A stretch of 64,000 nt of DNA, taken from Escherichia phage Pinarejo. Positions 12,800 through 13,539 of this stretch are shown one piece after another. The stretch lies in the sequence record PP925831.1. The stretch is one strand, 5' to 3'. The notes beneath the pieces were generated by a model that saw only the letters and a program-made list of their open reading frames with translations, ran no database searches and had not been told where the DNA came from. Position 1 is the first letter of the stretch; every line of letters begins with the position of its first letter. The position numbers and the translations under genes are program-made.

Positions 12800-12840
12800 A
12801 ATAAACCCTTACCTTAAATAGATAAGGGTATTTATTATTT

Positions 12841-13017
12841 TCAAGTATTGTAAAACATTCGATGCAATCGTTTATACTGTCGAATCATCTTTTTAGTAGG
12901 ACGAGAATAGGTTCCTACGCAAGTGGTCATATGAGGGTCCGTAGAATGTCCTTTAATAAAAAGTTTCCAAACCTTACCGCCATTTAACTTTTCAGTATAA
13001 ACCAATTCGGTTTTCAT
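12841..13017 (-). CDS. Small ORF, 58 aa (below track threshold), C-terminus duplicated from the upstream gene
   Basis: Hand translation MKTELVYTEKLNGGKVWKLF...IRQYKRLHRMFYNT; last 14 aa and 3' flank repeat the end of 13054..13539. Confidence 0.4.
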   Translation of the reverse strand: MKTELVYTEKLNGGKVWKLFIKGHSTDPHMTTCVGTYSRPTKKMIRQYKRLHRMFYNT

Positions 13018-13053
13018 TAAAATGTCCTGTCAGAAAAAGAATTTTGAGTTTTT

Positions 13054-13539
13054 TCAAGTATTGTAAAACATTTGATGCAATCGCTTATATTGCCGAATCT
13101 TTTGGTCAGAAAAAGAAATTTGAGTTTCAAGCCATTCAATGTACTCTGCGGCAGCTTGCATCAGGTTACCTTCATAGCCATCGTTATTTTCTTGCGCAGC
13201 TAATTTAGCTAATGCGTATGAAATACGTTCACCTTGAAAAGCGGCTTTAGGCTTCTGAACATCTTGGCTAGTTCTCTCTACAACTTCTTCAATTTCGCCA
13301 TTTTCAACGGATTCAGTATTCCACAAACACCAGTATGTAATTGGCTTATCATAGATGTTAATAATCTTTCCGTCGGAAAGTTCAATTTCAATAATTCCAG
13401 TATCAGGTTCTATATCATCTTCGCATTCTTTTGCAAGTTCACGAACTTTAAAAACAGTACCTGCACTAAGTTCCGGCCAGTAATTACATAGCCCTGTATC
13501 AACACGATTAATTCTAAACCACTTATCTACTGTAATCAT
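13054..13539 (-). CDS. Hypothetical protein, 161 aa (position and size consistent with T4 Pin; not verified)
   Basis: Track ORF starts at TTG; trimmed to ATG giving MITVDKWF..., 161 aa; lies between nrdC and gene 49. Confidence 0.5.
   Translation of the reverse strand: MITVDKWFRINRVDTGLCNYWPELSAGTVFKVRELAKECEDDIEPDTGIIEIELSDGKIINIYDKPITYWCLWNTESVENGEIEEVVERTSQDVQKPKAAFQGERISYALAKLAAQENNDGYEGNLMQAAAEYIEWLETQISFSDQKIRQYKRLHQMFYNT

Follow-up and report, generated by a model that had tools for sequence, protein, structure and literature searches.

Nested direct repeats between pin and gene 49 of Escherichia phage Pinarejo as probable scars of two recombination events

In the genome of Escherichia phage Pinarejo (PP925831.1; the 64,000-nucleotide stretch analyzed is called the window below), the interval between pin, the gene of the host Lon protease inhibitor PinA (Pin), and gene 49 holds a small open reading frame (ORF), ORF58, and two nested direct repeats. 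These repeats are very probably the scars of two successive recombination events in an interval that is plastic among T-even phages. The window genome is a Tequatrovirus (T4-like), and the region around the repeats is 99 to 99.7% identical to that of many T-even phages of Escherichia coli, Shigella, and Yersinia.

The original prediction reported a segment of about 55 nucleotides (nt) present twice about 210 nt apart, together with a second short repeat at about 13029 and 13105, and alignment bears out both. In repeat 1, 49 nt align without a gap, 45 of them identical between the copies, whose starts are 213 nt apart, and the match extends to about 55 nt once an indel of 3 nt is admitted (AAAAAGATGATTCG versus CAAAAG---ATTCG), while the copies of repeat 2 measure 21 nt (20/21 identical) and lie 76 nt apart. 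The translations agree with the further claim that the 161-amino-acid (aa) Pin and the 58-aa ORF58 have their last 14 residues in common, with one Q/R difference (Pin ...SFSDQK-IRQYKRLHQMFYNT; ORF58 ...PTKKM-IRQYKRLHRMFYNT). We give no credence to a chance or low-complexity match or an assembly artifact, for which only the AT-richness of the genome (65% A+T) speaks: the sequence is not of low complexity, its extended identity holds on alignment, and a 33-nt sub-core of repeat 1, with up to one mismatch, is found at exactly two places in the window and in 0 of 100 dinucleotide-preserving shuffles. Repeat 1 likewise has only two copies in the 64 kb when up to three mismatches are allowed, and the same arrangement recurs in 112 independent phage records, so that it is not an assembly artifact. 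Three of the four differences between copies A and B of repeat 1 are synonymous variants also found among ORF58 alleles, with copy B agreeing with the ORF58 tail of phage OE5505 at those three sites and copy A differing there, a pattern that suggests that the two copies derive from different lineages.

With respect to the relatives, four architectures are distinguished by the distance from an anchor in pin (TGGCTTGAAAC) to the gene 49 hairpin (ATAAATACCC). The distance is 309 nt in the window, Elenatom, ASO78A, JB75, and EC.W14-2, which have a long pin, a relic, and ORF58 (308 nt in ZN18, locus L018, with one A fewer); 233 nt in OE5505 and G50, which have a short, 148-aa pin whose stop overlaps the ORF58 start; 96 nt in T4, T2, T6, REP1, Killian, and Sf24, which have a long pin and no ORF58; and 64 nt in Kha5h, with a short pin and no ORF58, a junction also present in IME339. 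These architectures differ by 76 nt, the spacing of repeat 2, by 213 nt, the spacing of repeat 1, and by 137 nt, the OE type minus the T4 type. The 96-nt group has a single copy of repeat 1 and lacks the 213 nt between the copies, and OE5505 and G50 have a single copy of repeat 2, without the intervening 76 nt; this exact correspondence supports the earlier suggestion of a recombination scar or module duplication, for which a comparison with one-copy relatives had been proposed. In T4, pin directly adjoins the gene 49 leader, and the window has exactly 213 nt more. T6 and Killian, whose pin tails are identical to copy B, continue from the copy B sequence into the sequence downstream of copy A, and since T6 is exactly this combination, recombination of repeat 1 with repeat 1 has probably interconverted the architectures in at least some lineages. 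The window-type junction is found in 112 phage records, RB32 and RB33 among them, and ORF58 homologs in 357. From an evenly spaced listing we estimate approximately 250 T4-type, 65 to 80 OE-type, and 65 Kha5h-type records, figures that are estimates only, as BLAST coverage cannot cleanly separate the T4 from the Kha5h type because the repeats allow pieces to be joined. On the same footing, the fused Pin would be carried by roughly 70% of sequenced Tequatroviruses.

That the 3' end of a gene has been duplicated stands, with the polarity implied by the title of the original prediction reversed: on comparative grounds the tail is native to ORF58, a DUF7279 protein, and not to pin, making the long Pin of T4 and of the window a chimera. 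This follows from the presence of the tail in ORF58 homologs, its absence from outgroup Pins, and the family models, which stop before it. ORF58 matches Pfam DUF7279 (PF23945; 62.7 bits, cut-off 24.5, E = 3e-17) and phrog_3272 (E = 3e-34, positions 1 to 58 of 59), and Pin matches PF10465 over residues 4 to 141 (160.8 bits, cut-off 27, E = 2e-47) and phrog_2167 over residues 1 to 146 (E = 9e-66). Both Pin models end before residue 147; Pin residues 147 to 161 match phrog_3272 positions 44 to 58, and these C-terminal 15 residues fall outside the PinA family (PF10465/phrog_2167). ORF58 homologs lie directly upstream of the gene 49 leader in Tequatrovirus, Dhakavirus (IME540, FB, JS98-like), Mosigvirus (JK45, RB69ORF087c), and a more distant, S16-like group (L026, L027, L040); this position is conserved in nearly all ORF58-bearing loci examined, in at least three genera. 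The tail motif ...RPTK.[IL]R..K[RK].HR.FY is conserved in ORF58 homologs of at least four genera and is more divergent in L026, L027, and L040. Tail-less Pins end in ...QL.FSD[RK]AF and a stop (...ERRLS and a stop in Mosigvirus) directly before the gene 49 leader or ORF58, and they occur in at least eight divergent loci (gp49 identity down to approximately 68%, L059) as well as in OE5505, G50, and Kha5h. In Dhakavirus L022, the end of a Pin-fragment ORF (1289) is the start of ORF58, with a one-base overlap as in OE5505.

ORF58 itself is a real coding gene under purifying selection, since the ratio of nonsynonymous to synonymous substitution rates (dN/dS) lies between 0.04 and 0.32 in all 36 of 36 pairs. 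AlphaFold2 (AF2) predicts three beta-strands followed by a C-terminal helix, residues 42 to 56, which is the duplicated tail (pLDDT, the predicted local distance difference test score, is 81.7 for the best model and 52 to 63 for the other four). No fold match better than E = 0.27 was obtained for the model against the PDB, and its sole match in BFVD was the family's own S16 member. Database records give the family only as a DUF in Pfam and as a PHROG of unknown function; a large protein search with ORF58 returned 10 clusters, all DUF7279 and all unnamed, and neither DUF7279, PF23945, RB69ORF087c, nor RB32ORF is mentioned in the searchable literature.

The fusion joint can be followed codon by codon. 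The T4-type Pin of 161 aa equals the short Pin plus the last 15 codons of ORF58, consistent with an in-frame deletion of 137 nt. The presumed ancestral joint combines the left side of OE5505, TCTGACCGA, with its right side, ATGATTCGGCAA..., and joining TCTGACCGA to this genome's own ATGATTCGGCAATATAAG..., with 137 nt removed, yields the in-frame product ...SFSDR-MIRQYKRLHRMFYNT. The long-pin alleles observed have exactly the predicted joint length with one or two substitutions at the joint, reading CGA ATG ATT CAG in T4, T2, and REP1, CAA ATG ATT CGG in EC.W14-2, CAA AAG ATT CGG in the window, T6, and Killian, and the same as the window plus an extra H>N change in Sf24 and L016. Furthermore, all of them have a CGA>CAA (R>Q) change later in the tail; this, with the constant joint length, points to one fusion and subsequent divergence. 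In the tail appended to pin, 5 changes are nonsynonymous and 1 is synonymous, versus 0 and 3 in the native ORF58 tail within Tequatrovirus (Fisher P = 0.048); the numbers are small but agree with weaker constraint on the copy in pin.

Repeat 2 marks a gene relic. After the pin stop, the window reads CTT GAA AAA ACT CAA AAT TCT TTT TCT GAC AGG ACA TTT TAA TG, which translates as LEKTQNSFSDRTF and a stop, with the TAA overlapping the ATG of ORF58; the short-Pin counterpart is LETQISFSDRAF and a stop, and the EC.W14-2 relic retains ...SDKAF and a stop. Copy R2' of repeat 2 is accordingly best described as what is left, in decayed form, of the 3' end of the ancestral short pin, a relic that would have been retained for the ribosome-binding site and start codon of ORF58. 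The opening CTTGAA of the relic doubles as the last bases of copy B (..AAT ACT TGA A), which places the recombination joint within CTTGAA(A), a motif that recurs in pin at 13125-13131. Where OE5505, with its TAATG stop/start overlap, has CGAGCA, the relic has AGGACA, giving an AGGA Shine-Dalgarno sequence; the ORF58 start now lies 36 nt past the pin stop, as opposed to translational coupling, and the change is presumably adaptive.

Two observations on this segment stand on their own. In EC.W14-2 (L067), a divergent member of the window type, the repeat 2 copy within pin reads ACTCAAAATTC (TQN), like the relic, which suggests gene conversion between its two copies. In addition, a TTG-initiated ORF of 40 aa (13017-13139, minus strand) runs in another frame over the pin 3' end and ends with the relic (...LEKTQNSFSDRTF and a stop); most likely it exists only as a side effect of the relic and is not a gene.

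The history we propose would start from an arrangement that is observed as such, a short pin ending in ...FSDRAF with its stop overlapping the ORF58 start (TAATG), and an ORF58 whose C-terminal helix ...MIRQYKRLHRMFYNT lies just before the late promoter and ribosome-binding-site hairpin of gene 49. The first event, of which the product is observed and the mechanism inferred, would be a 137-nt deletion after pin codon R146 that put the final 15 ORF58 codons in frame behind it, creating the 161-aa T4-type Pin and removing ORF58. The second would be an unequal recombination between a fused-pin genome and one with short pin and ORF58 (OE5505 type), within CTTGAA(A), a motif that closes the tail and is present a second time in pin, directly ahead of TQISFSD. 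This event would yield a fused pin, the relic of a short-pin end, and an intact ORF58, with the tail (repeat 1) and the TQ(I/N)SFSD codons (repeat 2) each present twice; the relic would not be translated as Pin and would persist as the carrier of the ORF58 start region with its new Shine-Dalgarno sequence. A test of the donors identifies copy B with the ORF58 tail in its OE5505-like variant and R2' with the short-pin 3' end. Unequal recombination between T4-type and OE5505-type genomes is the most likely origin, and the order of events is less certain.

A different order, which we regard as unlikely, would begin with a tandem duplication of a unit of about 210 to 213 nt (R2, RAF and its stop, ORF58, tail) in an OE5505-type genome via CTTGAAA, followed by the 137-nt deletion in the first copy to give the window type, from which the T4 and T6 types would arise by a 213-nt deletion between the tails. 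OE-type genomes do have two CTTGAAA motifs approximately 210 nt apart, the copy B sequence followed by the copy A hairpin in T6 and Killian is what a crossover in the last 21 identical nt would give, and the intermediate QMIR junction occurs in the window-type EC.W14-2. This order needs three events versus two, however, and no tandem double ORF58 was identified (2 of the 357 records have a second match, one of them BEU50 at 193 kb, and these second places were not inspected); moreover, the differences between copies A and B match different ORF58 lineages, a better fit to recombination between lineages.

Several points also weigh against our two-event history. The order proposed is tentative, and the joint is imprecise, with CTTGAAAAAACTC observed versus the CTTGAAACTC expected from a clean crossover, that is, three extra A; around the 137-nt deletion, no obvious microhomology was found. 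Since QKIR is the junction of the window, which has ORF58, and also of T6, which lacks it, at least one interconversion must have followed the fusion, and recombination among T-even phages makes allele histories reticulate. The nonsynonymous/synonymous contrast is based on 9 substitutions, the expression of ORF58 is predicted, and the neutrality of the tail in Pin is putative.

The duplication could instead have been kept for function, with the C-terminal helix of ORF58 serving as a portable interaction module (e.g., for Lon or another host target) that improves Pin, a reading we consider quite unlikely. Selection, and not neutral scarring, would then account for the frequency of the fused Pin (about 70% of sequenced Tequatroviruses) and for both copies being kept in the window. 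The tail frame is intact in every long-pin allele sampled, the fused allele is by estimate the majority state, ORF58 and pin are syntenic in several genera, and in ORF58 the tail, by prediction a helix, is strongly conserved. However, the appended tail has accumulated mostly nonsynonymous changes, unlike the native one, many phages have a tail-less short Pin (the Kha5h type and most other genera), the profile and fold searches revealed nothing that ties the family or the structure to Lon binding, and in a tail of just 16 codons an intact frame is weak evidence. That the DUF7279 C-terminal helix is a portable functional module, such as a Lon- or host-factor-binding peptide, whose capture altered the properties of PinA is in our view unlikely, and a role of ORF58 related to Pin or Lon, for which synteny and the fusion alone speak, is speculation.

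With respect to regulation, the gene 49 leader hairpin folds at -16.3 kcal/mol (z = -4.06, a stability reached by none of 200 shuffles), also appears as a terminator-like site in a scan, and in its predicted fold sequesters the Shine-Dalgarno AAGG/GGG and the AUG of gene 49, whereas the stretch after copy B is unstructured (-2.3 kcal/mol, z = +0.9). The AATAAATA next to the hairpin matches T4 TATAAATA at 7 of 8 positions, is annotated as a late promoter in ASO78A, and has an ATAAATA core that is invariant in 23 loci; by analogy with T4 it would be the gene 49 late promoter. In 23 diverse T4-like loci with gp49 identities from 50% to 100% (approximately 1450-1503 of L016 to L059), the leader is conserved with compensatory stem changes (ACCCTTA/TAAGGGT, GGTTCA/TGAACC, GAGTCAT/ATGACTC, and CCTCTATA/TATAGGGG), the fuller covariation being judged by eye, as a MAFFT/RNAalifold consensus gave 4 pairs only owing to alignment problems. 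Since copy A alone is followed by promoter and hairpin, gene 49 regulation is not duplicated with the repeat, and a regulatory duplication is rejected.

It is also extremely improbable that the repeat is a PeSL or PmSL, a mobile regulatory cassette of an early or middle promoter plus a stem-loop, with ORF58 inserted as a mini-circle module. PeSLs do flank indels in hyperplastic regions of T4-like genomes, the nearby genes 49.2/49.3 have been exchanged in phage PST (PMC4122927), and ORF58 is a small accessory gene with flanking direct repeats. PeSL promoters are defined by a sigma-70-like early TTTACW-N17-TAYWAT or by a Mot box plus -10 (PMC4122927). None of the four defining features tested was found, and the cassette is rejected: both copies are coding, being the last 14 codons of ORFs, and not intergenic; a promoter scan of 12838-12886 and 13051-13099 on either strand returned no sigma-70-like promoter; the stem-loop is missing at copy B; and there are 2 copies in 64 kb, not multiple dispersed ones. 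Furthermore, the PST 49.2/.3 exchange has itself been ascribed to non-PeSL short homology (PMC4122927).

From the sequences compared, the pin-gene 49 locus is a recurrent recombination hot spot. ORF58 was lost between microhomologies of 6 to 9 nt, GTTTTA-AT in Kha5h and CGTTTA in the Mosigvirus AV112. Mosigviruses (loci compared: JK45, L009; O157tp3, L010; AV112, L012; L029; L028; and OLB35, L015) carry pin between two DUF7279 paralogs, with paralog A, of 56 aa, on the upstream side and paralog B, of 59 aa, on the downstream side, and with B frameshifted in O157tp3 and L029. In the Mosigviruses L028 and OLB35 (L015), pin is absent and a chimeric A/B gene is present, with the crossover in the 9-nt ACTTTTATA common to both tails, an event that deleted the whole of pin. 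Several times, then, the DUF7279 3' end has been a substrate for recombination.

The locus varies further. In the Dhakavirus loci L021, L024, and L025 (approximately 700-1470 of each), Pin is apparently split and permuted: an ORF of 59 aa for its C-terminal part (...AADYIHWLEAQLRFSDEAF and a stop) comes before one of 100 aa for its N-terminal part, and ORF58 and gene 49 come next, an arrangement that a tandem duplication may have left behind. IME540 has no pin at all. In L011 (dhaeg), a further small ORF, hydrophobic in its product (MKTSTVILCLWGIFNLGMLVYLVGQL), sits on the coding strand between ORF58 and the pin fragment and has the same ATGAAAACT start as ORF58, which suggests another short-homology insertion.

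The coordinates of the interval and its neighbors are collected in Table 1.

Table 1. Positions of pin, ORF58, the repeats, and neighboring features in the window
Feature	Position	Strand	Basis or remark
nrdD	10512-12329	-	Minus-strand order: nrdD, 49, ORF58, pin, then gp49.1-like ORFs
Gene 49, endonuclease VII, 157 aa; downstream neighbor	12326-12799	-	Annotation in ~99%-identical relatives and T4
Gene 49 leader hairpin; core stem-loop 12805-12829	12798-12838	-	Folding, conservation
Late-promoter-like AATAAATA, between ORF58 stop and hairpin	12829-12836	-	Sequence reading; ASO78A annotation
Repeat 1 copy A, native ORF58 3' end; last 14 codons and stop 12841-12885	12838-12886	-	
ORF58, 58 aa, DUF7279/phrog_3272	12841-13017	-	Profile matches
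Shine-Dalgarno AGGA, 7 nt 5' of ORF58 ATG, within relic	13025-13028	-	Sequence reading
Putative relic of ancestral short-pin 3' end; contains R2'	13017-13058	-	Translation; comparison with OE5505, G50, EC.W14-2
Repeat 2 copy R2', within relic	13029-13049	-	
Repeat 1 copy B, ORF58-derived pin tail; last 14 codons and stop 13054-13098	13051-13099	-	
Repeat 2 copy R2, pin codons T-Q-I-S-F-S-D, final native Pin residues before fusion joint	13105-13125	-	
pin (PinA, host Lon protease inhibitor), 161 aa; long fused allele, QKIR junction type	13054-13539	-	Profiles; annotation of relatives and T4

Around the interval, nrdD is here a single unbroken ORF of 605 aa; in T4 this gene contains the I-TevII intron, and in JB75 a homing endonuclease is found within the nrdD region. 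A near-consensus sigma-70 promoter (TTTACA-17-TATAAT, 11/12; 13580-13608, minus strand) lies inside a gp49.1-like ORF just upstream of pin and could plausibly serve pin and ORF58 as an early promoter. The 56-aa ORF at 13662-13832 (minus strand) is annotated as "antitoxin from a toxin-antitoxin system" in some relatives and as hypothetical in others, and its interval holds different genes in T4 (49.2, 49.3), which makes it another variable segment. An antitoxin label for ORF58 was rejected, as the annotation under the first BLAST matches belongs to this ORF (~13662-13832).

The mechanism invoked, short-homology recombination with gene fusion by deletion, is ordinary and well known; no function in their own right is attributed to the repeats, and the current understanding of mechanisms is unchanged by these findings. 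What changes is the view of the reference protein: the T4 PinA of Lon biochemistry carries 15 C-terminal residues that are foreign to the Pin family and come from a neighboring gene lost by T4, and the short ...FSDRAF form is the ancestral protein to use in work on Pin and Lon and in family annotation. We found neither this case nor the chimeric C terminus of T4 PinA in the searchable literature, and a review of T4 genome evolution does not discuss pin. The four Tequatrovirus architectures, with the parallel events in Mosigvirus and Dhakavirus, form a natural series in which homologies of a few to 49 nt appear to create, fuse, duplicate, and delete small accessory T-even genes without PeSLs or homing endonucleases. 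The repeats remain substrates for deletion, repeat 1 with repeat 1 giving the T4/T6 type and repeat 2 with repeat 2 the OE5505 type, so that measurable, recurrent deletions of 213 and 76 nt are predicted in RB32/RB33-type phages. If the helix were a functional module after all, the 161-aa T4 protein, the only PinA characterized biochemically, would have to be regarded as an atypical chimera, and phage control of host proteolysis would have in ORF58 a second, unrecognized player.

Compared with known systems, the 161-aa Pin of the window is a full-length member of peptidase inhibitor family I24 (PF10465), and by analogy with T4 it would inhibit Lon. Lon binding and inhibition have been characterized for T4 PinA (Skorupski 1988 and Hilliard 1998, as cited in PMC8835725). 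Both proteins are of the long, fused-tail form, with the junction QKIR in the window and RMIQ in T4; the family model ends at approximately residues 141 to 146, while the last 15 residues of both are DUF7279. The gene 49 leader, in turn, is identical in sequence to that of T4, where translational repression by RNA structure has been described (Barth et al. 1988, cited as reference 60 in PMC2988022), with the same hairpin and AATAAATA directly downstream of copy A; it lies outside the duplication, and copy B has no such element. As predicted from the T4 element, late transcripts of the window would begin within the hairpin and thereby expose the ribosome-binding site. PeSL shuffling (Arbiol et al. 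2010; Comeau et al. 2014, PMC4122927) is similar in that direct repeats flank a small accessory ORF within a plastic region, and excision or integration between these repeats would interconvert alleles; PeSL cassettes, however, are intergenic promoter/stem-loop elements, whereas the repeats of the window are coding 3' ends.

The closest likeness is to the short-homology recombination of T4 itself, known from rII deletions between short direct repeats and from the classical r1589 rIIA-rIIB fusion. Here as there, deletions and a duplication are bounded by repeats of a few to 49 nt, and one deletion fuses adjacent genes in frame; in the present case the one-copy and two-copy products coexist in nature. 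The general mechanism is that of Albertini et al. 1982, as cited in PMC4122927. In contrast to the T4 rII cases, which are laboratory mutants, the events at the pin-gene 49 locus are natural, fixed, and widespread alleles, and the fused gene, T4 pin, is treated as the reference form of the protein.

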